Source of the DNA: Candidatus Woesearchaeota archaeon
Lineage (GTDB): Archaea; Nanobdellota; Nanobdellia; Woesearchaeales; JACPBV01
Direction: 5' to 3'
Length of the DNA stretch: 64,000 nucleotides
NCBI GenBank assembly: GCA_016180135.1
Contig: JACPBV010000007.1
Span: forward strand, 41,248-105,247
Shown here: positions 5,310-56,700 of the stretch, piece after piece
How the letters are laid out: every line of letters starts with the position of its first letter
How positions within the stretch are numbered: the first letter of the stretch is position 1
The notes under the pieces: model-generated
Told to the model about the DNA's origin: nothing
What the model saw: only the letters and a program-made list of their open reading frames with translations
Database searches by the model: none
Position numbers and translations under genes: made by a program

Positions 5310-5312
5310 TTT

Positions 5313-5390
5313 GAATGCAACCATTCCATCCGGTCTTTGATCGTTCCCGAGCGAAGCGAGCGGAACTAAGAAAATCAACGGATTTTCTGT
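5313..5390. repeat. interspersed repeat family 'AATGCAACCATTCC...CCGAGCGAAGCGAG', copy 1
   Basis: AATGCAACCATTCCATCCGGTCTTTGATCGTTCCCGAGCGAAGCGAGCGGAACTAAGAAAA is near-identical to 56625-56700 and partly to 35875-35920; it lies directly after the ecfT stop; a 14-bp inverted partner GAATGGTTGCAT sits at 5421-5434. Confidence 0.7.
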
Positions 5391-5530
5391 TGGTGGTTGG
5401 AATCAGTTTTCTCTTCCAGAATGGTTGCATGCGTCAAGAACAACCAGATATAATAACCATTGTGGTTGTTCTTGGGCGTGCTCAGGATTTCAAACATTTC
5501 AAAATAGATGCTTGGAAATCCTGACATTTA

Positions 5531-5630
5531 AAAATCCGACCCGAGCGACCGAAGGGATAATCCAGCGTTTCGGTCTGCGGACGGAGGGATAATCCAGCGT
5601 TCCGGTTGCTTCGCAACGGAGGGCGGCCCC
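5531..5630. repeat. repeat family R1 (AAAYCCGACCMGAGCGRCCRAAGGGRTAATC ... CTGCGGACGGAGGG), with an internal imperfect tandem duplication of about 31 bp
   Basis: GGGATAATCCAGCGTT(T/C)CGGT occurs twice in tandem; the whole unit is homologous to 18943-19010; contains hairpins ACCGAA...TTCGGT. Confidence 0.65.
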
Positions 5631-7160: not shown

Positions 7161-7325
7161 AGGCTCCGTTCAAAGTATAGGTTAGCAGCCTAAAGTAAAA
7201 ATCACTTGCCTTCTGAATCCAGCTGACAGGGGGGTCGCCCCAAACGGGGGATGTCAGCAAACGGATAGAATATTTACGATTTTTAAGCTGCTAACCCGAG
7301 CGAAGCGAGATTTTGAACGGAGCCG
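7161..7325. ncRNA. candidate structured RNA or composite repeat: two long-range nested helices enclosing a GC hairpin
   Basis: GCTCCGTTCAAA (7163-7174) pairs with TTTGAACGGAGC (7312-7323); GGTTAGCAGC (7180-7189) pairs with GCTGCTAACC (7287-7296); inner hairpin CTGACAGGGGGGTCGCCCCAAACGGGGGATGTCAG at 7218-7258 has a homolog at 26440-26482. Confidence 0.3.
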
Positions 7326-7448
7326 GCAAACGACACAAGTATTTAGGCAAAATTATGCCGTTTGCTTACCCCTTAGAGGGGTACAAAAAACGTCTTTTCG
7401 TATTACGGACGGACCACAGCTGTATAATTATTTTTGTCCGTAAATATA
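7325..7448 (+). promoter_or_regulatory. conserved bipartite intergenic module, copy 1 (hairpin followed by T-tract, then palindrome-flanked AT-rich box)
   Basis: GCAAACGACAC...GCCGTTTGCT hairpin, then TATTACGGACGGACCACAGCTGTATAATTATTTTTGTCCGTAAATAT; homologous to 14249-14345 and 29341-29432; lies 60-80 nt upstream of the + strand gene at 7508. Confidence 0.45.
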
Positions 7449-14248: not shown

Positions 14249-14345
14249 ATAGCAAAGGACACAATATTTTAAGCATAATGTAACTGTCCTTTGCTTATTA
14301 CGAGTGGACAACTATTGCCCATTTATTTTTGTCCACGAGTATAAA
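14249..14345 (+). promoter_or_regulatory. conserved bipartite intergenic module, copy 2
   Basis: ATAGCAAAGGACAC...GTCCTTTGCT hairpin, then TATTACGAGTGGACAACTATTGCCCATTTATTTTTGTCCACGAGTAT; aligns with copy 3 with compensatory changes (AAGGAC/GTCCTT versus AAAGAC/GTCTTT). Confidence 0.45.
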
Positions 14346-18942: not shown

Positions 18943-19010
18943 GAAACCCGACCAGAGCGGCCAAAGGGGTAATCATGTGTTCCCCTCTGCGGACGGAGGG
19001 CGAGCAATCC
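18943..19010. repeat. repeat family R1, copy 2
   Basis: AAACCCGACCAGAGCGGCCAAAGGGGTAATCATGTGTTCCCCTCTGCGGACGGAGGGCGAGCAATCC is homologous to 5531-5600. Confidence 0.6.
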
Positions 19011-19041
19011 CTTAGACTATCAAAGGGTTGTTGGATTTTGT

Positions 19042-26439: not shown

Positions 26440-26482
26440 CTGACCCATTCCCCTTTGGGGCGGCCCCCTTGTCAGCTGGATT
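26440..26482. repeat. GC-hairpin repeat (family shared with 7218-7258)
   Basis: The reverse complement reads TCCAGCTGACAAGGGGGCCGCCCCAAAGGGGAATGGGTCAG, homologous to TCCAGCTGACAGGGGGGTCGCCCCAAACGGGGGATGTCAG. Confidence 0.5.
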
Positions 26483-26590
26483 CAAAGGGCAAATGATTTT
26501 TACTTTAGGCTTCTAACCTATATTTTTTGACGGAGCCCATAGCCTATAGTAAACTATTTAAAGGGCCGATTTACCCTCCGGACAGCAAAG

Positions 26591-29340: not shown

Positions 29341-29432
29341 ATAGCAAAAGACACGAACATTTAGACAATAAACATGTCTTTTGCTATTACGAACGGACAA
29401 CTACTGTTCAATTATTTTTGTCCGTAAGTATA
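29341..29432 (+). promoter_or_regulatory. conserved bipartite intergenic module, copy 3 (atpK-atpE intergenic)
   Basis: ATAGCAAAAGACAC...GTCTTTTGCT hairpin, then ATTACGAACGGACAACTACTGTTCAATTATTTTTGTCCGTAAGTAT; ends about 22 nt upstream of the atpE ATG. Confidence 0.45.
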
Positions 29433-31131: not shown

Positions 31132-31283
31132 CAATTACGGTGACCCTGGTAGGGATGATGGCAGTAATGATTGCATTGATAATAGCAGCGACGATGGAAG
31201 GAACATCAAATATGGCGGGAACATAAAATAGGGAAGGAACCTCCAAAAGGGAATGAACACCTAAAAGGGAATGAGCACCAAAA

Positions 31284-31691
31284 ATGGGAGGGACAGAAAT
31301 GGCAGGGACAGGAAGTGGGCAGGGCAATCGTGCTCCAGCTCATCAAATTGGCAAGAAAGGACAACAAGCGCAAACTTCACAATATCGATCTGGAGATTCA
31401 ATAGCGGTCTTCGGCACAAAGGAATTCAACCTGGGTTTTATGCTTGCCGGCATCAAAAAAGTTTTTAACTCGAGCGATGAGCCGGACAATGAGTTCAGGG
31501 CTTTGGCCTCAGACCATTCGATCAACATGGCAGTCATCGAAGATGATGTTGCAAGAAAGCTAAGCCCATTGCGCCGGAGGACAGTTGAAACATCCATCAA
31601 GCCAGTCTTTGTCACGCTGTCAAGATCCATGAGCGATGACGCACTGAAGCAGATGATCAAGCGCTCGATAGGAGTTGATCTGTGGAAATAA
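31284..31691 (+). CDS. atpF: A-type ATP synthase subunit F with low-complexity N-terminal extension
   Basis: Core SIAVFGTKEFNLGFMLAGIKKVF...AVIEDDVARKL matches subunit F; preceded by about 35 aa of Gly/Gln-rich sequence. Confidence 0.75.
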   Translation: MGGTEMAGTGSGQGNRAPAHQIGKKGQQAQTSQYRSGDSIAVFGTKEFNLGFMLAGIKKVFNSSDEPDNEFRALASDHSINMAVIEDDVARKLSPLRRRTVETSIKPVFVTLSRSMSDDALKQMIKRSIGVDLWK

Positions 31692-31730
31692 ACTGCCTAA
31701 TTAAAAAACTAGGGAGATATCATTCAAAAA

Positions 31731-31838
31731 AATTCAACAACATCGGCGAGGCGAGGTCGGGGGTCGCCCCATCGGGGTGACCGAGCAGGGCAAAATTTCT
31801 CAAAGAAATTTTGACCGTCGAGCCCGTTGTTGTTGAAT
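31731..31838. repeat. MITE-like palindromic element A (TIR AATTCAACAACA), atpF-atpA intergenic
   Basis: AATTCAACAACATCGGCGAGGCGAGGTCGGGGGTCGCCCCATCGGGGTGACCGAGCAGGGCAAAATTTCTCAAAGAAATTTTGACCGTCGAGCCCGTTGTTGTTGAATT; the sequence is self-complementary. Confidence 0.7.
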
Positions 31839-31888
31839 TTTTAAATCGGTAAAACTGCAGCTGGAAAATAAGTTTTATTTACAAAAGA

Positions 31889-33763
31889 TTGGATGGTGAG
31901 AATCTTATGAGCAAAGCAACGATCATTAAAGGAGAAGTAAACAAAGGAACAGCCAGCGATGGAACTTCCAGCGATGGAAATCCCGGCAATCGGGAAGACA
32001 GCAAAGGAACAATCTCCAAGCGAACAATAGGAAAAGGAACCATATTCAGGGTAGCAGGGCCGGTGATCGAGGCAAAGAACATTGACGCTAAGATGTATGA
32101 CGTTGTCATTGTCGGCAAGGAGAGGCTGATGGGCGAGGTCATCAGGATTCAGGAAGAGCTGACGACGATACAGGTCTATGAGGATACTTCAAACATCAAG
32201 CCCGGCGAAGATGTTGAAGTGACGGGGATGCCGCTGTCAGTCGAGCTTGGGCCCGGATTATTGTCAAGCATCTACGACGGGATACAGAGGCCGCTGCCTG
32301 TCCTTAGGGACCAGATGGGCGATTTCATCAAAAGAGGGGTTCAGGCGCCGGGGCTTGACCACAAAAAGAAATGGGAATTCAAGGCTGCTGCAAAGAAAGG
32401 CGATGAGGTGAAGGGGGGTGCTGTCATCGGGACTGTCGAGGAGATGCCGGGCATTGTGCACAAGATAATGGTTAAGCCGGACGTTCATGGGAAGATTGAG
32501 TCTATCAAAAGCGGCAGTTTTACTGTCGATGAAGCTGTCGGGGAACTGGAGGACGGCACAGAGCTGAAGCTCTTCCACCAGTGGCCGGTCAGGATACCGA
32601 GGCCTGTTGCAAAAAAGCTGATGCCGGAAACACCGCTTGTCACAGGGCAAAGGGTGATTGACGGATTATTCCCGGTAGCAAAAGGGGGCGTTGCTGCGAT
32701 CCCTGGGCCGTTCGGAGCAGGAAAAACGGTTTCCCAGCAACAATTGGCAAAATGGTCTGACGCTGACATCATCGTCTATATCGGCTGCGGCGAGCGTGGG
32801 AATGAGATGACAGAAGTCCTCACAGAATTTCCCCATCTTACCGACCCAAAATCGGGGAAGCCCCTGATGAACAGGACGGTGCTGATCGCCAATACCTCCA
32901 ATATGCCGGTCGCAGCCCGTGAGGCATCAGTCTATACGGGAATCACCATCGCAGAATATTTCAGGGATATGGGCTATGATGTTGCGCTGATGGCAGACTC
33001 CACTTCACGCTGGGCGGAAGCGATGAGGGAGATCTCGTCAAGGCTTGAGGAGATGCCCGGGGAAGAGGGGTATCCTGCCTATCTTTCGACAAGGCTTGCT
33101 GAATTTTACGAACGGGCAGGGCGAGTCATCCCTTTAGGAACTGACAAGGCCGGCTCAGTCACGGTCATCGGGGCAGTCAGCCCTCCCGGAGGAGATTTTT
33201 CAGAGCCGGTCACCCAGGGAACGCTGAGAGTAATCAAGACATTCTGGGCGCTTGATGCGAAGCTTGCACAGAGAAGGCATTTTCCGTCGATAAACTGGCT
33301 GACAAGCTATTCCCTCTATCAGGATACGCTCTCAGGATGGTTCAACAAAGAAATTGCGCCCGACTGGTCTGACAGGGTCAGGCAGATGAAGACGCTCCTG
33401 CAGGAAGAGGAAAAATTGCTGGAGATCGTCCAGCTTGTCGGCTCTGATGCGCTGCCGGAGAAGCAGCAAATCACGCTTGAGACTGCCCGGCTCATCAGGG
33501 AGTTTTTTCTCCAGCAGAACGCATACCATGAGGTGGATACTTACTGTGATTTAAAAAAGGCATACAGGACGATGGGATTGATACTCCAGTTTGGGCAAAA
33601 GGCGCAGGAGGCACTTGGCAAAGGCGCTGACATCCAGCGGATCCTTGGCATCAAGACAAAAGACAGGATCGGAGAAGTGAAGTTTGACAAGAACCATGAC
33701 GCTCTTCTCAATTTGCTTGAAGCCGAGATGAGGAAAGAGTTTGATGCGGTGGGGGCTGAATAA
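31889..33763 (+). CDS. atpA: A-type ATP synthase catalytic subunit A, with low-complexity N-terminal extension
   Basis: Walker [10 protein letters not shown]; GERGNEM; family-typical [14 protein letters not shown]-terminus, preceded by about 45 aa of KGT/SDG-repeat sequence. Confidence 0.95.
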
Positions 33764-33807
33764 GATGATAGGCTCTGAATCAATAAGCTCTGAATTGGCA
33801 GTTAAAA

Positions 33808-33918
33808 AATTCAACAACAACAATGGGCTCGACGGTCAAAATTTCTCAGAGAAATTTTGCCCTGCTCGGTCACCCCGATGGGGCAACCCCCGACCTCGCC
33901 TCGCCGATGTTGTTGAAT
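33808..33918. repeat. MITE-like palindromic element B, an inverted copy of element A downstream of atpA
   Basis: The reverse complement differs from 31731-31838 at only a few positions; elements A and B flank atpA in inverted orientation. Confidence 0.7.
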
Positions 33919-33964
33919 TTTCTGGATGTTCTTTTTCATATAAACGATGCGTAGGTGGTAACTT

Positions 33965-34098
33965 ATGAAGGCAGACTCACTGTCGTTCGCAGCCTTCATT
34001 TTGAAGGCAATGTTCAGGGAGGTAGTTCAAAATGAAAGCAGACTCACTGTCGTTCGTAGCCTTCATTTTGAAGGCAATGTTCAAGGAGGTAGTTCAAA
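33965..34098 (+). repeat. perfect-to-near-perfect tandem duplication (2 x 67 bp) of the atpB start region
   Basis: Each unit reads ATGAA(G/A)GCAGACTCACTGTCGTTCG(C/T)AGCCTTCATTTTGAAGGCAATGTTCA(G/A)GGAGGTAGTTCAAA; each carries its own SD plus ATG and a TGAAGGC...GCCTTCA hairpin; this creates upstream ORFs of 45 and 26 codons ending at or overlapping the atpB ATG. Confidence 0.8.
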
Positions 34099-35598
34099 AT
34101 GAAAGAGTATAAAACAATCACGAGAATTGAAGGGCCGCTGGTTTTTGTGGCTAAGACTGAGCCTATCGGGTATGGGGAGATCGCTAAGATACGGCTGCCT
34201 AATGGGGAGATCAAGAATGGGCAGGTCCTTGATACTTCTGATGACATCGTTGTTGTCCAGGTGTTTGAAGGCACTCGGGGGATTGACAAGAACGCAACTA
34301 TCAAATTTCTTGGGGATACAATCAAGCTGGCAGTCAGCGAAGATATGCTTGGGAGGATCCTGGACGGGAAGGGGGAGCCTCTTGACAACGGGCCTTCTAT
34401 CATCCCTGAAAAGAAGATGGAGATCATCGGCGCAGCAATCAATCCTTACGCAAGGGACAGCCCGGGGGATTTCATCCAGACAGGGATTTCGACGATCGAT
34501 GCGATGAACACGCTGGTCAGGGGGCAGAAGCTGCCGATTTTTTCCGGCTCGGGGCTGCCGCACAATGAGATTGCGCTCCAGATAGCGAGGCAGGCAAAAG
34601 TGCTTGGCATGAAGGAGAAGTTTGTCGTTGTCTTTGCAGCGATGGGGATCACCAATGAGGAAGCCCAGCATTTCATCAGGGATTTTGAGCAGACAGGGGC
34701 TATCGAGAGGAGCGTCGTGTTTTTGAATCTTGCAGATGACCCCGCTGTCGAAAGGCTGATCACGCCAAGGATGGCGCTTACAACGGCAGAATACTTTGCC
34801 TACGACAAAGACATGCACGTCCTTGTCATCCTGACAGACCTTACCAATTACTGCGAGTCACTGAGGGAGATAGGCTCTGCCCGTGAGGAGATTCCGGGAA
34901 GGAGAGGGTATCCCGGCTATATGTATACTGACCTTGCGACTATCTATGAGCGGGCAGGGATCATCAAAGGGAGGAAAGGCTCAATCACCCAATTCCCCAT
35001 CCTCACCATGGTCGGGGATGATATCACTCATCCTATCGCTGACCTCACCGGCTATATCACTGAAGGGCAGATTGTGCTGAGCAGGGAGCTGCATACCAAA
35101 GGATTCTATCCTCCTGTTGATGTGCTTCCTTCGCTTTCCAGGCTGATGAATCTTGGTATCGGAAAGCAAAAGACCAGAGAAGACCATAAGCAGGTTTCTG
35201 ACCAATGCTATGCCGGCTATGCTGAAGGGCGTGACTTGCGAGGGCTTGTCGCTATCGTCGGTGAAGATGCGCTTTCTGATAAGGACAAAAGGCTGCTGAA
35301 GTTTGCTGAAGCGTTCGAGAAAGAATTTGTGACCCAGGGAAAGCACGAAGACAGAGATATTTCCAGAACCCTTGACCTTGCCTGGGAGCTGCTGGGGATG
35401 CTGCACAAGGAAGACCTCACAAGGATTTCACCTGAGCTGAAGAATAAATATTACAAAGCGCGATGGCTGGACGCTCCCTTAAGTGAGGAATCAAAAGAAG
35501 CGGGCAAAAAGGAAGCTGTTGGGAAGGAAGAATCCAGGACAAAAGTCTCTGTAAGGAAGCCTTTGCAGGGGATGGATGAAGAAGATACCAAAGAGTGA
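34099..35598 (+). CDS. atpB: A-type ATP synthase regulatory subunit B, with charged C-terminal extension
   Basis: Collinear with archaeal AtpB ([19 protein letters not shown]; [22 protein letters not shown]); about 40 extra C-terminal residues are rich in K/E. Confidence 0.95.
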
Positions 35599-35734
35599 TA
35601 AAATATAGGCCGTAAAAAAGGGAAAAATAAAAGGAAAATAACATCATTAATAAAAGGAAAATAACATCATTAAGAATGGATAAATGCCCTAAAGTTAGGG
35701 GTTATACAAGACTCAGACTGCATTTCATAAACGC

Positions 35735-35853
35735 CCAACAACAAAAATGGGCTCAAACACGGTCGTGCTCCGCACGCCCTACTCACAAAGGATTTTCCCG
35801 AACTTCGTAGCGGGAAAATCCTCTGCATTCGAGTTTTCGGCCATTGTTGTTGG
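35735..35853. repeat. MITE-like palindromic element C (related TIR CCCAACAACAAAAATGGGCTC ... GGCCATTGTTGTTGGG)
   Basis: Shares the CAACAACA terminal inverted repeat and adjacent ATGGGCTC with elements A and B; internal perfect hairpin GGATTTTCCCG...CGGGAAAATCC. Confidence 0.6.
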
Positions 35854-35874
35854 GCTGAATGTTTAAAGCGGTTT

Positions 35875-35920
35875 GAATGCAACCATTCCATCAGGTCTTT
35901 GACCGTGGTGGTCGGATTTT
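35875..35920. repeat. 'AATGCAACCATTCC' repeat family, truncated copy
   Basis: GAATGCAACCATTCCATCAGGTCTTTGACCGT matches 5313 and 56625. Confidence 0.6.
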
Positions 35921-36051
35921 TATTGAAAGTTTAAATCTGTGTGAACATTAATGTCATACCATCAAGGCCACACCCTCAGGGCCATACCATTAAGTCCATA
36001 CCATTAACGCCATACCTTTAACTGATGCAACACAACCTCATAAACTAACTC

Positions 36052-37036: not shown

Positions 37037-39892
37037 TTAACTCATCGAAAGGTTAGTATCATCCAAGGAATAAACCCAATAACCCCACCCGGCGGTAAAG
37101 TTCTGAAGCCTGTTCATCGACGCATCTCTTCCCTTGACATAGGAGAACCAATCACCCCAACGGAAGGAATAGACTCTGGTGATTGGCGCTGAAACCATCG
37201 TTTCGTTGATACCTATGCTTTTTCCTGAGGGGTAACCGATAAGATTCCATCCCCGCTGGAGCTCTATTCCCTGGGATGTGTTAAAAGGAATTCCAGCAAT
37301 CGTCGAATTCATGTCCCTGATCCCATAGGCCCACAGCGCCATTGAGGTATTCACTTCCGAGTCAGGTGAAAGGTTTAGCCAGTGACCGTCTTTAAATGTA
37401 AGGACGGGCTTAATTGGGTCCATTGAGAGCCTGCTGCCGATGCGCCTCACCGTTGCAGGATTGAACCAAGAAGGAAATGAAACGAGGCTCCAGCCTTTGC
37501 TGATGAACATTTGGCAGTCATCTCCAAGGCCATTATTATCGGAATCAGGCTGGCCAGGATTATAAACCTCCGGGCAGTTGTCTGCAAGCCTCGGGAGGAA
37601 ATCCTTATCTAAATCCTGGAATTCCGAAACATTGATGGAAAGGACTGCCGAGCCATTTCCGCCAAGAATATCTATACGCTCAGCATCTATGAAATAAGGC
37701 AGGGTTATTGCGTCTTCTGTGAAGTTTACAGAGGCAAAATCTGATTCATTGGGAACAATAACCTGGGAATCATTCTGATCAAAAAATGAGCGGGGAGGGC
37801 TGAAGACTGGCTCAAGTGCGAGAGAAAAGTTTAATGAATAAAGAGTATCGTTAAGGGAGGAGAAGACAACTGCTCGGTAGGAGGAATTTTCATCATCAAT
37901 ATTTTCTGCCCTCCCCGATGCAAGTGAGACGTTCCTGACAGAAAGATTTCCTTCTTCAAAAATAATTTCAGCCACAAAGCTCAGGTTATATTCTGGGCTG
38001 CTTTCCTCAAATATCCCGAAAAAATTTTTTAGGGAAGCATTGATATCCTTTTCCAGCTCTATCCTGTGGACCTCGCCAAATTCTGCATCGGGCCGATAGG
38101 AGTTCCTCATCAATGAATTTTTATAGGGCCTATACCAGTTGCTATAGAAGCACTCGCTGCTGCAGGTGATGCCGGCCAGGGAAGCCCATTTGGGGCAGCC
38201 TGAAATATCGCAGTTGGGAACCTTGCCCGGATTTTTTGGATTTGCTCCGGCATTTTTGTATTCATCCATCAGTCCACCGAAGGAATGCCCGAACTCATGC
38301 ACCAATGTCCTTACAACCTCGAATTTGTTATCTCCTGCATTGGCGCAATCAAAAAATATTCCTCCATCTCCACGGCAGTTTCCGGGGTCCTGCCCGTCCT
38401 GCGGCCTTGCGATGTCCAGCGGAAATTCGCACATGCCGAGGTATTCGCATCCCGCAACGATGAAAGCCTCTTTTTTTCCGATACCTGAGTATGGCTTGAT
38501 ATAAGCATGAGGCCAGAATCTCGGCTCAAATGAAAGAAAGACCAGCTGATCCCACTGAGGGCAGGCTGATTTTCCCAGTTTCCTTGCCTGCTGCTCATAC
38601 TTTTCGAGGGTAAACGCCGGCAGGGAATTTACGGCCCAAAAATTAAACTTGCCCTTATTTTCTTTAAAAGGGCTGACTGACATAAGGCCGCCAAGGGAAC
38701 CATTGTAATCAACAAAATCGGCTGCAGTCTGAAACCATGAGCTGATATTGGGAAATCCGCTTCCTACAAATACAACATCAATCTTATCCCTGCTTCTCCC
38801 GTTGATGGTGAGCCCATTGCATATCGGGCAACCTTTCTTGCAGATCCATCCGCAGTCAATGCCCTCTTCGAAGCCGTTCTGGAACCCGTCATTGCAGCTT
38901 ACTGTAGCGCAAACGCCGTTGCTGCAGAACTTCCCTTTGCAGCCTGTGTTGGATGCGCATTTCTTTCCGTCGGGGCATGGGCCGCACACTCCTCCGCAAT
39001 CAACATCACTTTCTAAGCTGTCTTTAATACCATTATCGCACGACCCAATATCTTTCCTCAGCCAGGGGTCAAAATTCACTTTCCCTTTGGCGCCCAAGGA
39101 CTCTTCATCGTCATAGATGGCCTGCTCGATATATTCCCCTGAGTTAGTTCCCCAGAAGTTGTTGATGGCGGTGACCTGCGCCTTTGCATTGTTGAAAAGC
39201 CCAAAGGTTGTGCTGGAGGTGATTGAATTCTGAGAAATTATATTTGTCCCATTATCAACATAAATCCCAACTGAATTCCCCTGGAGAAAGTTGTCAGAAA
39301 AAGTATTTCCATAGGAACCCTGGCCCAAATGGGCGCCTCTAGTGTTGTTCCAGAAGCTATTCCTGAGGAGAGTATTGAATAATGAGCCACTTTCAACAAG
39401 GATGCCTCTCGAGTTGTTTGAAATGTTGTTGTTGATAATTTTATTGCCATCACTATCAAAAAGATTAATCCCGTAGCCGACATTGTTCTTGAATTCATTA
39501 TCATTCAGTGTGTTGTTGTTAAGATACTTAAGGGTAATCCCGTCTGCACCATTATTCAGGCCCTTATTTGAAGCAAATGAGCCGTTTCTCGCACGAAAAA
39601 TATAGCCCTGCGCCGCATTATTCCTTGAGATGGTATTCCTGATAATCGGCCTATCTGCAAGAAGCCCAAGGGATGTATCACTTGTAACGGCAATTCCATT
39701 TGAATAATTCTCAACAATGCAGTTCTTAATGAGTATATCATCATCATAAGAGCTTACAATCCCATAGCCTATCCGTTTTCCAACAAGGACTGTATCATCG
39801 CAGTCCAGCACAACCCCATGCGCATCAATCTCGATGCCGCCTGAAAGCTTATATGTTCCCGGGCAGAGCGTCGTGTTTTCGATGACAACCAT
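37037..39892 (-). CDS. beta-helix / Cys-rich / M64-like metallopeptidase surface protein, C-terminal major fragment (951 aa) of a disrupted paralog
   Basis: Parallel beta-helix repeats; Cys-rich CGGVCGPC...GCKGKFCSNGVC module; HEFGHSFGGLMDEYK zinc-peptidase motif; TSP3-like DNCPEVYNPGQPDSDNNGLGDDC; conserved C-terminal KGWSL...GWNLIGYP...FTAGWGYWV; no signal peptide of its own. Confidence 0.7.
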   Translation of the reverse strand: MVVIENTTLCPGTYKLSGGIEIDAHGVVLDCDDTVLVGKRIGYGIVSSYDDDILIKNCIVENYSNGIAVTSDTSLGLLADRPIIRNTISRNNAAQGYIFRARNGSFASNKGLNNGADGITLKYLNNNTLNDNEFKNNVGYGINLFDSDGNKIINNNISNNSRGILVESGSLFNTLLRNSFWNNTRGAHLGQGSYGNTFSDNFLQGNSVGIYVDNGTNIISQNSITSSTTFGLFNNAKAQVTAINNFWGTNSGEYIEQAIYDDEESLGAKGKVNFDPWLRKDIGSCDNGIKDSLESDVDCGGVCGPCPDGKKCASNTGCKGKFCSNGVCATVSCNDGFQNGFEEGIDCGWICKKGCPICNGLTINGRSRDKIDVVFVGSGFPNISSWFQTAADFVDYNGSLGGLMSVSPFKENKGKFNFWAVNSLPAFTLEKYEQQARKLGKSACPQWDQLVFLSFEPRFWPHAYIKPYSGIGKKEAFIVAGCEYLGMCEFPLDIARPQDGQDPGNCRGDGGIFFDCANAGDNKFEVVRTLVHEFGHSFGGLMDEYKNAGANPKNPGKVPNCDISGCPKWASLAGITCSSECFYSNWYRPYKNSLMRNSYRPDAEFGEVHRIELEKDINASLKNFFGIFEESSPEYNLSFVAEIIFEEGNLSVRNVSLASGRAENIDDENSSYRAVVFSSLNDTLYSLNFSLALEPVFSPPRSFFDQNDSQVIVPNESDFASVNFTEDAITLPYFIDAERIDILGGNGSAVLSINVSEFQDLDKDFLPRLADNCPEVYNPGQPDSDNNGLGDDCQMFISKGWSLVSFPSWFNPATVRRIGSRLSMDPIKPVLTFKDGHWLNLSPDSEVNTSMALWAYGIRDMNSTIAGIPFNTSQGIELQRGWNLIGYPSGKSIGINETMVSAPITRVYSFRWGDWFSYVKGRDASMNRLQNFTAGWGYWVYSLDDTNLSMS

Positions 39893-40488
39893 GCCTTGGA
39901 GTTGGTGTAGGAGACAGAAGAATCCTGGATGTCATTGTCCCAGATGTCATTAAAGCTTGCGGTGTCGAGGGAGATGCTGTTCTGGGAGTTGTTGTCTATA
40001 AGGTTTTTTGTTACGGCATTCCCGCTGCTCTGGTCTATGAGTATTCCGCTTTCGCCGTTCCCCACAAACTCATTGCCAACAAGAGTGTTGTTTCTCAGGT
40101 ATTTCAGCAAAATCCCATTTCTGCCGTTGTTTACTGCTTTGCTGCCTGTCACCGTGCCGTTGATGGTCCAGAGCTCAAACCCATTGCCTGCATTGCCCCT
40201 GGAAATAGTATTGCTGATTGTGGGGCGATCTGAAAAGATGCCAAACACCGTGTCACTTTCCATCACAATACCGTCAGAATAGTTCTCGATAATGCAGTCC
40301 CTTATAACGACATCATCATTAAACTGGCTCTGTATGCCGTCATTCAGCCTTGTCCCCCTGAGCGTTGATCCATCGCAGTCCAGCACAACCCCATGCGCAT
40401 CAATCTCGATGCCGCCTGAAAGCTTATATGTTCCCGGGCAGAGCGTCGTGTTTTCGATGACAACCATGCTCATTGTCCCAGATGTCAT
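39769..40488 (-). CDS. beta-helix repeat fragment (239 aa), middle piece of the disrupted paralog
   Basis: N-terminus MSMVVIENTTLCPGTYKLSGGIEIDAHGVVLDCD is near-identical to the N-terminus of the 951-aa ORF; ends with the NNSQNSISLDTASFNDIWDN junction cassette; overlaps both neighbours in different frames. Confidence 0.5.
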   Translation of the reverse strand: MTSGTMSMVVIENTTLCPGTYKLSGGIEIDAHGVVLDCDGSTLRGTRLNDGIQSQFNDDVVIRDCIIENYSDGIVMESDTVFGIFSDRPTISNTISRGNAGNGFELWTINGTVTGSKAVNNGRNGILLKYLRNNTLVGNEFVGNGESGILIDQSSGNAVTKNLIDNNSQNSISLDTASFNDIWDNDIQDSSVSYTNSKAWLSSKTRRSAREHISFQAASRLMRMGLCWTAMIQSLLENG

Positions 40489-41095
40489 TAAAGCTTGCGG
40501 TGTCGAGGGAGATGCTGTTCTGGGAGTTGTTCCTTATGGCGTTCCCTGTAATGATATTACCGCCAGCAGATTGGAGATCTATACCATTGCCACGGTTATT
40601 TGCGATGGTATTGCCCCGAACTGAATTATTGCCCCTGTCTATAATCAAGATACCACCGGCATTATTAAGAACAGAATTTCGCTGTATCGTGCTGTTGAGG
40701 GCCTCAAGGTAAATTCCGGCTGAGGATTGGTTCCTGATTATTGAGTCCTGAACAATAATCTTTGATGAGGCGGTAAACCTCGCTCCGGTTGAAAAGCTTT
40801 CAATGATGCAGTTTTTGAGAGTGATGCCTGACAGGCTGTTTCCAACAATCCCATTTCCAGAACCTTTCCCGGAAATCTTAAAGTCATTGCAGTCAAGCGT
40901 CAGAAAATTCCTTCCGATAGTGAAACAGGTGGATGTTCCAAAAAGACCCGAGCCCAGAGTGTAGTTTGTGATTAAGGTATCGCCGCAGGCGCATGTTTTA
41001 ATGCCATTGCCGCAATTTGCGGCATAGGTAAAGCCTGAAGATATCACTACAACAATAATAACAGATAATATCAAGATTATTTTCGTAATATGCAT
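40424..41095 (-). CDS. signal-peptide plus beta-helix fragment (223 aa), 5' piece of the disrupted paralog
   Basis: N-terminal signal peptide/TM MHITKIILILSVIIVVVISSGFTYA; beta-helix repeats; ends in the same ISLDTASFNDIWDN cassette, then a frame change. Confidence 0.5.
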   Translation of the reverse strand: MHITKIILILSVIIVVVISSGFTYAANCGNGIKTCACGDTLITNYTLGSGLFGTSTCFTIGRNFLTLDCNDFKISGKGSGNGIVGNSLSGITLKNCIIESFSTGARFTASSKIIVQDSIIRNQSSAGIYLEALNSTIQRNSVLNNAGGILIIDRGNNSVRGNTIANNRGNGIDLQSAGGNIITGNAIRNNSQNSISLDTASFNDIWDNEHGCHRKHDALPGNI

Positions 41096-56572: not shown

Positions 56573-56624
56573 CTTTGAACTCCTGACTTTAATGAGTTTC
56601 TCTGATCAGGCAGATTCTAATTAA

Positions 56625-56700
56625 ATGCAACCATTCCATCGGGTCTTTGACCGTTGCCGAGCGAAGCGAGCGCAACTAGGAAAACAGGAGTTTTCCGTGG
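56625..56700. repeat. 'AATGCAACCATTCC...CCGAGCGAAGCGAG' repeat family, copy 3
   Basis: AATGCAACCATTCCATCGGGTCTTTGACCGTTGCCGAGCGAAGCGAGCGCAACTAGGAAAA matches 5313-5390. Confidence 0.7.

Follow-up and report, generated by a model that had tools for sequence, protein, structure and literature searches.

A 67-nt intercistronic module ahead of atpB and at a second gene junction in Woesearchaeota, a candidate portable translational-coupling cassette

Prokaryotic genomes carry small non-autonomous intergenic repeats of many kinds, including MITEs (transposable elements of miniature size with inverted repeats), ERIC, REP/BIME, Correia and the Rickettsia palindromic elements, some of which contain open reading frames (ORFs) or alter the expression of neighbouring genes (PMC10969869). 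Within operons, the translation of adjacent genes may be tied together by RNA-unfolding coupling, of which E. coli atpHA is a reviewed case (PMC12548453), or by termination-reinitiation at short overlaps, which are enriched among the subunits of heteromeric complexes and whose coupling is abolished by a gap of about 20 nt (PMC10666635). The subject of this work is a 67-nt module that stands between atpA and atpB, in two tandem copies, in a 64,000-nt stretch of DNA (the window) from a Candidatus Woesearchaeota archaeon (DPANN; assembly GCA_016180135.1, contig JACPBV010000007.1, positions 41,248-105,247). We favour, with moderate confidence, the reading that this module is an intercistronic cassette residing at the stop/start junctions of co-transcribed genes, gained and lost as a unit, and keeping the downstream gene translated.

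Distribution of the module

Tandem Repeats Finder describes positions 33965-34105 of the window as a repeat of period 67 with 2.1 copies, 95% matches and a score of 261, comprising two full head-to-tail units (33965-34031 and 34032-34098) that are identical at 64 of 67 positions (96%). The 46-nt core occurs only at these two sites in the 64 kb, with 0 occurrences expected by chance; the unit boundary is itself repeated over 13-20 nt (GGTAGTTCAAAATGAAAG), and the motifs GGGAGG and AGGAGG sit 9 nt 5' of the unit-2 ATG and the atpB ATG, respectively. An earlier, sequence-only reading of this DNA had proposed tandem 67-bp units ahead of atpB, each with a start codon, a Shine-Dalgarno (SD)-like motif and a short ORF, and this description is borne out: the units were recovered by Tandem Repeats Finder, by repeat search and in a separate assembly, and the ORF list contains both the 45-codon ORF whose TGA overlaps the atpB ATG and the 26-codon ORF that ends inside atpB. 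Tandem repeats shorter than a read pair are prone to mis-assembly, and the array might be a repeat collapsed or expanded in this way. However, a contig from the separate Logan assembly (L081; SRR4343430, 2 samples) reproduces both units base for base, including their three differences, and other species carry tandem copies as well, so that an assembly artefact is extremely unlikely. The two copies of the window appear to be young or homogenised.

Sequence comparison places the same family at the atpA-atpB junction in five lineages, with variable copy number. The closest relative of the window, L086 (83% AtpB identity), has one unit before atpB; L102 has 107 nt before atpB that represent one unit and a partial core repeat (about 1.6 copies) and form a single 36-codon ORF with an ATGA overlap with atpB at its end; L004, like the window, has two units; and L082 has at least two, with a shorter tail. 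In L004 the atpA TGA overlaps the unit-1 ATG, and the two units have diverged in their tails while retaining 80% core identity, with both cores and both ORFs intact. A unit profile searched with nhmmer recovers all carriers (E = 1e-11 to 1e-21). Between carriers, the four-fold degenerate sites of atpB are 31-42% identical and hence saturated, in contrast to 82-93% identity over the 40-nt core of the module. Compared with L004, the window units look chimeric, in that their core resembles unit 1 of L004 and their tail its unit 2, a pattern that fits contraction of an array followed by its re-expansion.

Comparison of homologous operons shows the module at this junction in four lineages other than that of the window, in one to at least two units; most sampled Woesearchaeota are without it. 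Those without include the closest relatives of L004 and further AtpB relatives that were sampled (P0004, P0005, P0075, P0117), and a neighbour-joining tree of AtpB, based on this single gene and lacking support values, spreads the carriers over three or more separate positions. N-terminally extended AtpB homologues, which would be a sign of in-frame units, were looked for and none was found. The family is rare and, as far as the sequences indicate, restricted to some Woesearchaeota.

A second setting of the module emerged from a scan of metagenomes for the core. In L084 and L085 it lies between the gene for a 191-aa membrane-anchored protein and that for a 70-aa membrane protein; in L085 the ATG of the next gene follows the module ATG at a distance of exactly 67 nt, and the tail shows homology to those of the modules before atpB. 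Among orthologous loci, fetched via the 191-aa protein, L098 and L099 have the same gene pair with a plain ATGA overlap and no module, and in L100 the two genes abut. The empty site reads GTAAC-ATGAA-GAAAAGG, and the occupied site GTAAC-ATGAA-[AACATACTC...GTTTAAA-ATGAA]-GAAAAGA, so that the upstream TGA and the downstream ATG are both kept and ATGAA flanks the insert on both sides (L084, L085), a repeat that may represent either a true target-site duplication or microhomology. At the atpA-atpB junction of L004 the arrangement is alike, the atpA TGA being contained in the unit-1 ATGA. One metagenome has the module at two kinds of locus, and the 64-kb window holds it at one.

Downstream of the junction, occupied L084 and empty L099 share 99.8% identity over 1508 nt (299/300 in a second comparison), and the modules of L084 and L085 match at 66 of 67 positions, once a nested 53-nt insert is removed, within flanks that are about 81% identical. 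Because nearly identical modules stand in these more diverged flanks, and because a strain that is 99.8% identical downstream is empty, the module has recently been gained, lost or exchanged in these populations. The nested insert of L084 (ACACGCGAAAATGCTATGCATTTTCGATGTCCTGAAAATCTCTGATTTTCATG) follows unit position 40, forms two small hairpins and is absent from the L085 module; a spacer hairpin in L002 (AAAATGC..GCATTTT) resembles it.

From these comparisons the unit is not simply a duplicated atpB initiation region but a member of a 67-nt module family. The recent slipped duplication of the atpB start that had been proposed for the window survives only in part: the copies are young and nearly identical, but the unit they duplicate belongs to a wider family. 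A strictly neutral form of this explanation, in which the array is a functionless variable number tandem repeat (VNTR) produced by recent replication slippage, draws on the 64/67 identity of exactly head-to-tail copies, on the differences in copy number among relatives, and on the 13-20 nt boundary repeat, an ideal substrate for slippage. It accounts for the doubling, but not for a unit that is conserved where silent sites are saturated, that recurs at another locus, that carries a covarying helix, and that L004 keeps as two diverged copies with cores and ORFs intact. For the feature in its entirety this explanation stands contradicted already, and we consider it very unlikely.

Helices, mini-ORFs and a proposed mechanism

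The module is conserved over its first ~40 nt and its last ~8 nt, with a variable middle to the tail. It starts ATGAA(A/G), so that the upstream TGA stop of an ATGA overlap is kept, and continues with a strongly conserved 19-nt stretch (CTCACTG.CGTTCG) and then with a 14-nt segment, here termed the anti-start (unit positions 28-41, GCYTTCATTTTKAA), which is the reverse complement of the unit boundary TTCAAA/ATGAARGC. The variable tail carries an SD-like GAGG and gives way to TTYAAA directly before the next ATGAA. Copy 1 of the window follows this layout, from its ATGAAG start through the conserved loop region and the anti-start to a variable tail with GGGAGG and a TTCAAA end.

The anti-start may pair backwards with its own start (helix A) or forwards with the next start, from -6 to +8 (helix B), in which case the SD-like motif is left in the loop. 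In 9 units, 11-13 of the 14 anti-start positions can pair with the next start, and helix B is 88.9% paired, with two compensatory pairs (G-C/A-U/U-A and U-A/C-G; 6 cells) that track whether the downstream start is ATGAAA or ATGAAG. For covariation it scores 0.141, as compared with 0.071 +/- 0.017 in shuffles; none of 500 shuffles reaches the observed percent paired, number of cells changed on both sides or covariation, and slid controls are all lower. Helix B is also the minimum free energy fold in 5 of 6 contexts running from the last unit to the gene start (z -2.4 to -4.8), and in L082 its stem of 12 bp is perfect and closes a 5-nt loop that holds the SD. The helix between anti-start and next start covaries.

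Helix A is an extension of a hairpin that the sequence-only reading had assigned to each unit, TGAAGGC(N19)GCCTTCA, in which GCCTTCA pairs with the unit's own start. That hairpin is exact in unit 1, but unit 2 reads TGAAAGC...GCCTTCA, with one A.C mismatch, and its minimum-energy fold is a different one. Across the family, the own-start hairpin folds in 4 of 7 units and shows no covariation, being equalled by 302/500 and 239/500 shuffles, and was rejected; helix A, assessed on nine units, is indistinguishable from shuffled controls. The idea that start codons take part in alternative pairings keeps some merit, but it is the pairing with the next start, and not the named one with the unit's own start, that covaries.

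These helices bear on the possibility that the module is a vertically inherited leader of atpB, a cis-regulatory switch or attenuator whose mutually exclusive helices tune the amount of subunit B, with the copy at the other locus being an ectopic duplication. Helices A and B do share the anti-start, helix B covaries, the module stands before atpB in five lineages with a core far more conserved than neutral sites, and the old copies of L004 have held their core identity despite diverged tails. Vertical inheritance is, however, at odds with the patchy distribution over the AtpB tree and the absence of the module from the closest relatives of L004, and also with a full module, tail included, that is almost invariant in diverged flanks and missing from a nearly identical strain. 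As to regulation, helix A lacks covariation and no sensing element was found. Rfam 15 and tRNA/tmRNA searches of the 64 kb gave no match at gathering thresholds and only sub-threshold, chance-level matches near the region, and 33760-34110 contains no terminator-like site and nothing relevant among sigma-70 sites. A conserved leader is accordingly unlikely, and the attenuation-style arrangement suggested earlier is not upheld, there being no Rfam match, terminator-like site or identifiable regulatory codons.

Every unit (9/9) has an ATG that either follows an SD-like motif or overlaps the stop codon of the upstream gene, and ribosome entry on the mini-ORFs is likely on these signals. The mini-ORF always spans the anti-start (codons 10-14), and no unit length is a multiple of 3. 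In the frame of the ATG, 54 of 136 pairwise codon differences are synonymous; the remaining two frames give 18/123 and 13/115. Most replacements are conservative (A/T, S/T/A, A/V/I, L/F), and a Leu codon varies between CTG, CTT and CTA but is never replaced. Single-amino-acid runs or known stalling motifs do not occur in the mini-ORF. Only two relatives of the peptide have been called as genes (P0223 and P0224), and an exhaustive peptide search of 1.84 billion representatives found no homologue outside the module, adding one true relative (P0224); its other two matches were repeat proteins.

The mini-ORFs could be micropeptide genes (MK-x-x-SL-x-F-x-AFIL...) that became duplicated, encoding an ATPase-associated, membrane-active or regulatory nascent peptide, with the nucleotide features secondary. 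The in-frame excess of synonymous changes, the conservative replacements and the silently varying Leu codon point this way, as do the initiation signals in all units and the two gene-called copies; moreover, the conserved 19-nt loop, which lies outside the account of the RNA model, corresponds to codons 3-9. However, conservation is limited to the first 13 codons, beyond which the C-terminal tails have neither sequence nor length (17-45 aa) in common, and the hydrophobic stretch of ~10 residues would be too short for a membrane span. Base pairing accounts equally well for several of the synonymous sites, which fall within the start and anti-start arms, the variable columns by codon position (4/4/7) are not significantly biased, and homologues outside the element were not seen. 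A functional peptide is possible, but is not supported by the sequences, and micropeptide genes as the explanation of the module are quite unlikely.

The coupling cassette that we favour would work as follows. The module would be gained and lost as a unit by a transposition-like or a microhomology/recombination process, and tandem arrays would then grow by a second insertion, unequal recombination or slippage, which they may do readily because the module regenerates its own boundary sequence, the unit ending as it begins; the 96%-identical pair of the window would represent a recent doubling. An ordinary insert of 67 nt at an ATGA overlap would be expected to abolish termination-reinitiation coupling, given that a gap of about 20 nt is sufficient (PMC10666635). 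Since this insert begins ATGA, ribosomes finishing the upstream gene could restart on the mini-ORF, and they would start there either by such reinitiation from the upstream stop or via the SD. Ribosomes crossing the anti-start would melt the helix that masks the downstream start and would terminate at or beside the downstream ATG, allowing RNA-unfolding coupling, termination-reinitiation coupling, or both. The insert would thereby preserve downstream translation rather than breaking it.

A number of observations weigh against this reading. The covariation of helix B comes from 2 pairs and roughly 3 independent events in 5-6 independent lineages, and related sequences can beat every shuffle without any structure; moreover, the complementarity of start and anti-start could serve a DNA-level process (mobility or recombination) instead of mRNA folding. 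In 6 of 7 loci the stop codon of a mini-ORF is placed between -4 and +2 nt from the ATG of the real gene, but such placement is not significant, at least 5/7 being reached in 13.5% of tail-shuffled controls. The cassette model does not explain the conserved 19-nt stretch between start and anti-start. As to mobility, the best terminal complementarity of the module is 3-4 nt and no better than that of shuffles, so that terminal inverted repeats are missing and a canonical MITE is ruled out. The copy number is very low: the nhmmer profile found no further module copies in 800 kb of fetched DNA, an exact-pattern core scan of the metagenome collection gave only 3 true matches (one more, L083, was a GC-rich chance match), and the core scan of viral contigs gave 0. 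No linked transposase was seen, though none of the searches was aimed at transposases and the visible part of the genome was 64 kb. Upstream of the junction L084 and L099 are only 90.8% identical, and this step in flank identity makes homologous recombination of the occupied allele a live alternative to fresh insertion.

The window itself adds to this side of the balance. Its anti-starts are followed by their own complement (GCCTTCA-TTT-TGAAGGC), anti-start 2 also being part of a local hairpin with 34069-34075 (TGAAGGC), and a local hairpin of -10.0 kcal/mol competes with helix B at -8.6 kcal/mol. The ensemble probability of helix B is about 6% and the atpB start is about 57% unpaired, so the start-masking helix is predicted to be weak here and the atpB start mostly accessible. 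The effect on subunit B stoichiometry that the sequence-only reading expected is hypothetical. In addition, atpA is already uncoupled from the array by a 201-nt spacer containing a MITE. Because of this spacer, and because local GCCUUCA/UGAAGGC pairings out-compete the masking helix in the folding model, the array of the window probably acts mainly as two SD-led mini-cistrons before an accessible atpB start.

A bolder variant would make the module a new class of tiny DPANN mobile element, a 67-nt coupling cassette that homes to ATGA(A) stop/start overlaps within operons, recreates coupling and regenerates its target. The internal anti-start might then guide the element to a complementary target, the host would be spared through the mini-cistron, the SD and the start-masking helix, and target regeneration would lead to tandem arrays. 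This variant can be entertained only tentatively.

If the coupling-cassette model is true, a tiny element can invade the tight stop/start overlaps through which the subunits of complexes are translationally coupled without breaking the operon, because it brings its own coupling device. It would constitute a natural, portable translational-coupling module from archaea, of interest for the study of mobile elements and archaeal translation and for synthetic operon design, and a marker of recent gene flow among uncultured Woesearchaeota. For annotators there is a warning in that the mini-ORFs found here belong to a repeat element.

The window operon and its neighbouring repeats

The window contains an archaeal A-type ATPase operon with atpE, atpC, atpF, atpA, atpB and atpD, and its AtpB (P0002) is 100% identical to an NCBI entry named V-type ATP synthase subunit B [Candidatus Woesearchaeota archaeon]. 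The C-termini of AtpA homologues could be placed in about 80 loci, and the usual archaeal atpA-atpB spacer measures -4 to +30 nt (about 80 species), as compared with 335 nt in the window; the module explains this abnormal length. The features of the junction are collected in Table 1.

Table 1. Features at and around the atpA-atpB junction (window positions).
Feature	Position	Strand	Remarks
atpA, A-type ATPase catalytic subunit A	31889..33763	+	ORF; upstream of array, 201 nt from unit 1
MITE, 125 nt, 15-nt terminal inverted repeats AAAATTCAACAACA / TGTTGTTGAATTTT	33802..33926	+	between atpA stop and unit 1
SD-like AGGTGG	33953..33958	+	6 nt 5' of unit-1 ATG
Module copy 1, 67 nt	33965..34031	+	nhmmer E = 2e-20
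Mini-ORF 1, 45 codons	33965..34102	+	runs through copy 2 in the +1 frame; TGA overlaps atpB ATG (ATGA)
Anti-start 1 (GCCTTCATTTTGAA)	33992..34005	+	complementary to own start region (8 bp) and to unit-2 start region (13/14)
Module copy 2, 67 nt	34032..34098	+	64/67 identical to copy 1; nhmmer E = 3e-21
Mini-ORF 2, 26 codons	34032..34112	+	ends 14 nt inside atpB
Anti-start 2 (GCCTTCATTTTGAA)	34059..34072	+	complementary to atpB start region 34093-34106, 12/14 (helix B)
atpB SD, AGGAGG	34084..34089	+	in helix B loop
atpB start region, TTCAAA/ATGAAAGA	34093..34106	+	third, partial unit-boundary copy; helix B 3' arm
atpB, A/V-type ATPase subunit B, 499 aa	34099..35598	+	Pfam ATP-synt_ab_N, ATP-synt_ab, ATP-synt_VA_C

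Two further ideas about the array of the window were considered and set aside. One was a degenerate 'unit 0' 5' of unit 1 into which the MITE had inserted; its local alignment scores are no better than those of shuffles. Excision of a bulge-helix-bulge intron that would restore an ATGA junction was rejected by reasoning: exact excision of one period inside a repeated boundary would require a self-complementary 4-mer, and the boundary (TTCAAAATGAAAG) is without one.

Other small insertions are plentiful in this ATPase operon, which is heavily invaded by them. The 15-nt terminal inverted repeat of the MITE at 33802-33926 was matched in 0 of 300 shuffles and served as the positive control for the terminal inverted repeat test. 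A second, inverted copy of this MITE, 95% identical to the first, lies on the other side of atpA (31724-31845, minus strand), and the MITE has an internal palindrome (GGTCAAAATTTCTC.GAGAAATTTTGCCC). In a polycistronic RNA the pair could form a 112-bp long-range stem enclosing the whole of atpA, and it could also act as a composite unit. The atpB-atpD spacer (35599-36051) is 453 nt long, as compared with 0-100 nt between atpB and atpD in relatives. Within it are two perfect tandem copies of a 23-bp unit (35626-35671), a 14-bp unit repeated 5.4 times (35946-36021), a hairpin resembling a terminator (35898-35916) and part of a GC-rich dispersed repeat family. Copies of this family (e.g. AAATCCGACCCGAGCGACCGAAGGGATAATCCAGCG...) are found at 5310-5606, 18944-19011, 35873-35936 and 56621-56684 of the window and in the closest relative, L086 (1-160; 98% over 61 nt), where the copy stands at the contig end, directly upstream of the 67-nt module. 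In-frame 18-bp and 15-bp tandem repeats at 31196-31324 (3' end of atpC and 5' end of atpF) and 31946-31979 (near the 5' end of atpA) provide the ORFs, as listed, with N-terminal extensions of low complexity that are rich in G/T/S/N. A 63-nt repeat family (…TATTACGRACGGACMAC…TTATTTTTGTCCGTAARTATA) has copies at 7386-7448, 14281-14343 and 29370-29432, one of them just 5' of the likely atpE start, and may be a promoter-associated or operator-like element.

Further from the operon, an inverted pair of 77-nt repeats (7172-7248 and 26450-26526; 90% complementary, 19 kb apart) probably represents a further family of dispersed elements. Two adjacent minus-strand genes, which encode a 951-aa cysteine-rich surface-type protein and a 239-aa protein, share at their 5' ends a 99-nt segment with 100% identity (39796-39894 and 40371-40469), followed by an 85%-identical segment (39932-40025 and 40470-40563); the 99-nt identity suggests recent gene conversion or partial duplication.

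The atpA-atpB junction carries other material in some loci without the module. In L089-L095, which are the closest relatives of L004, a complete gene (about 1767-2492 in each) for a 241-aa glutamine amidotransferase-like protein (PF00117) lies between atpA and atpB with tight overlaps with its neighbours, another sign that this junction is an insertion hot spot in Woesearchaeota. Long atpA-atpB spacers that lack the module occur in two other archaea: L002 (1096-1212) has an unrelated 38-codon ORF right after the atpA stop, which contains small hairpins and ends in an ATGA overlap with atpB, and L066 (3887-4001) has a 113-nt A/G-rich spacer. P0001 (L087), a 704-aa AtpB homologue that scores above the self-match, has an internal duplication of the nucleotide-binding region, unrelated to the module, which may be an assembly chimera or real.

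Comparison with known systems

As a genomic object, the module is closest to the small non-autonomous intergenic repeats. Like them, it is short, transposase-less and partly palindromic, lies in transcribed operon spacers, differs in presence or absence between close strains, and is accompanied by a short direct repeat at the insertion. It is unlike them in having no terminal inverted repeats and a very low copy number, in lying exactly on an ATGA(A) stop/start overlap with a start codon, mini-ORF and SD-like motif of its own, and in an inverted repeat that joins an internal segment to the target or boundary rather than two termini. The module also shows both the head-to-tail, high-identity copies and the variation in copy number among relatives that characterise a VNTR, and its fixed ATGAA with a complementary internal segment is suggestive, but no more than that, of IS200/IS605-derived (PATE-like) elements.

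Translational bypass inserts, such as the gap of phage T4 gene 60 and the mobile mitochondrial 'byps', resemble the module in being short inserts with identical take-off and landing sequences, a 5' hairpin and an SD-like element near the 3' end, but sit inside coding sequences, where they are hopped over. The module, in contrast, lies between genes, where bypass is unneeded. With leader-peptide attenuators of the trp and erm types it shares a short upstream ORF, which may be translated, and potential exclusive helices with a common arm, one of which would cover the downstream start. It differs from them in that the first helix lacks covariation and that neither a terminator or antiterminator nor identifiable regulatory or stalling codons occur; it also stands at an unrelated gene pair, where its behaviour is that of an insertion. 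In the open-access literature, nothing was found on comparable DPANN elements or on repeats targeting stop/start overlaps.

The resemblance to translationally coupled gene pairs is closer in terms of function. In termination-reinitiation, as known from archaea and bacteria (PMC6728339, PMC10666635), stop and start codons are joined by ATGA or 1-2 nt gaps, and such junctions are found from the upstream gene to the mini-ORF in L004, L084 and L085, and from the mini-ORF to the downstream gene in unit 1 of the window, L082, L086, L102, unit 2 of L004 and L085; the module differs in being a relay through an inserted mini-ORF, with a geometry that cannot be distinguished statistically from chance in the present sample. 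In RNA-unfolding coupling, described for E. coli atpHA, MS2 coat/lysis and f1 VII/IX (PMC12548453), the 5' arm that pairs with the start lies inside the preceding ORF, as it does in the module, and E. coli atpHA likewise belongs to an ATP synthase operon that needs fixed subunit ratios. Here, however, the upstream ORF is a mini-cistron of 17-45 codons carried on an insert and not a structural gene, and the device is portable, tandemly repeatable and known from sequence alone. By analogy, it is RNA-unfolding coupling and the ATGA termination-reinitiation pairs that the module would most resemble in the way it works.

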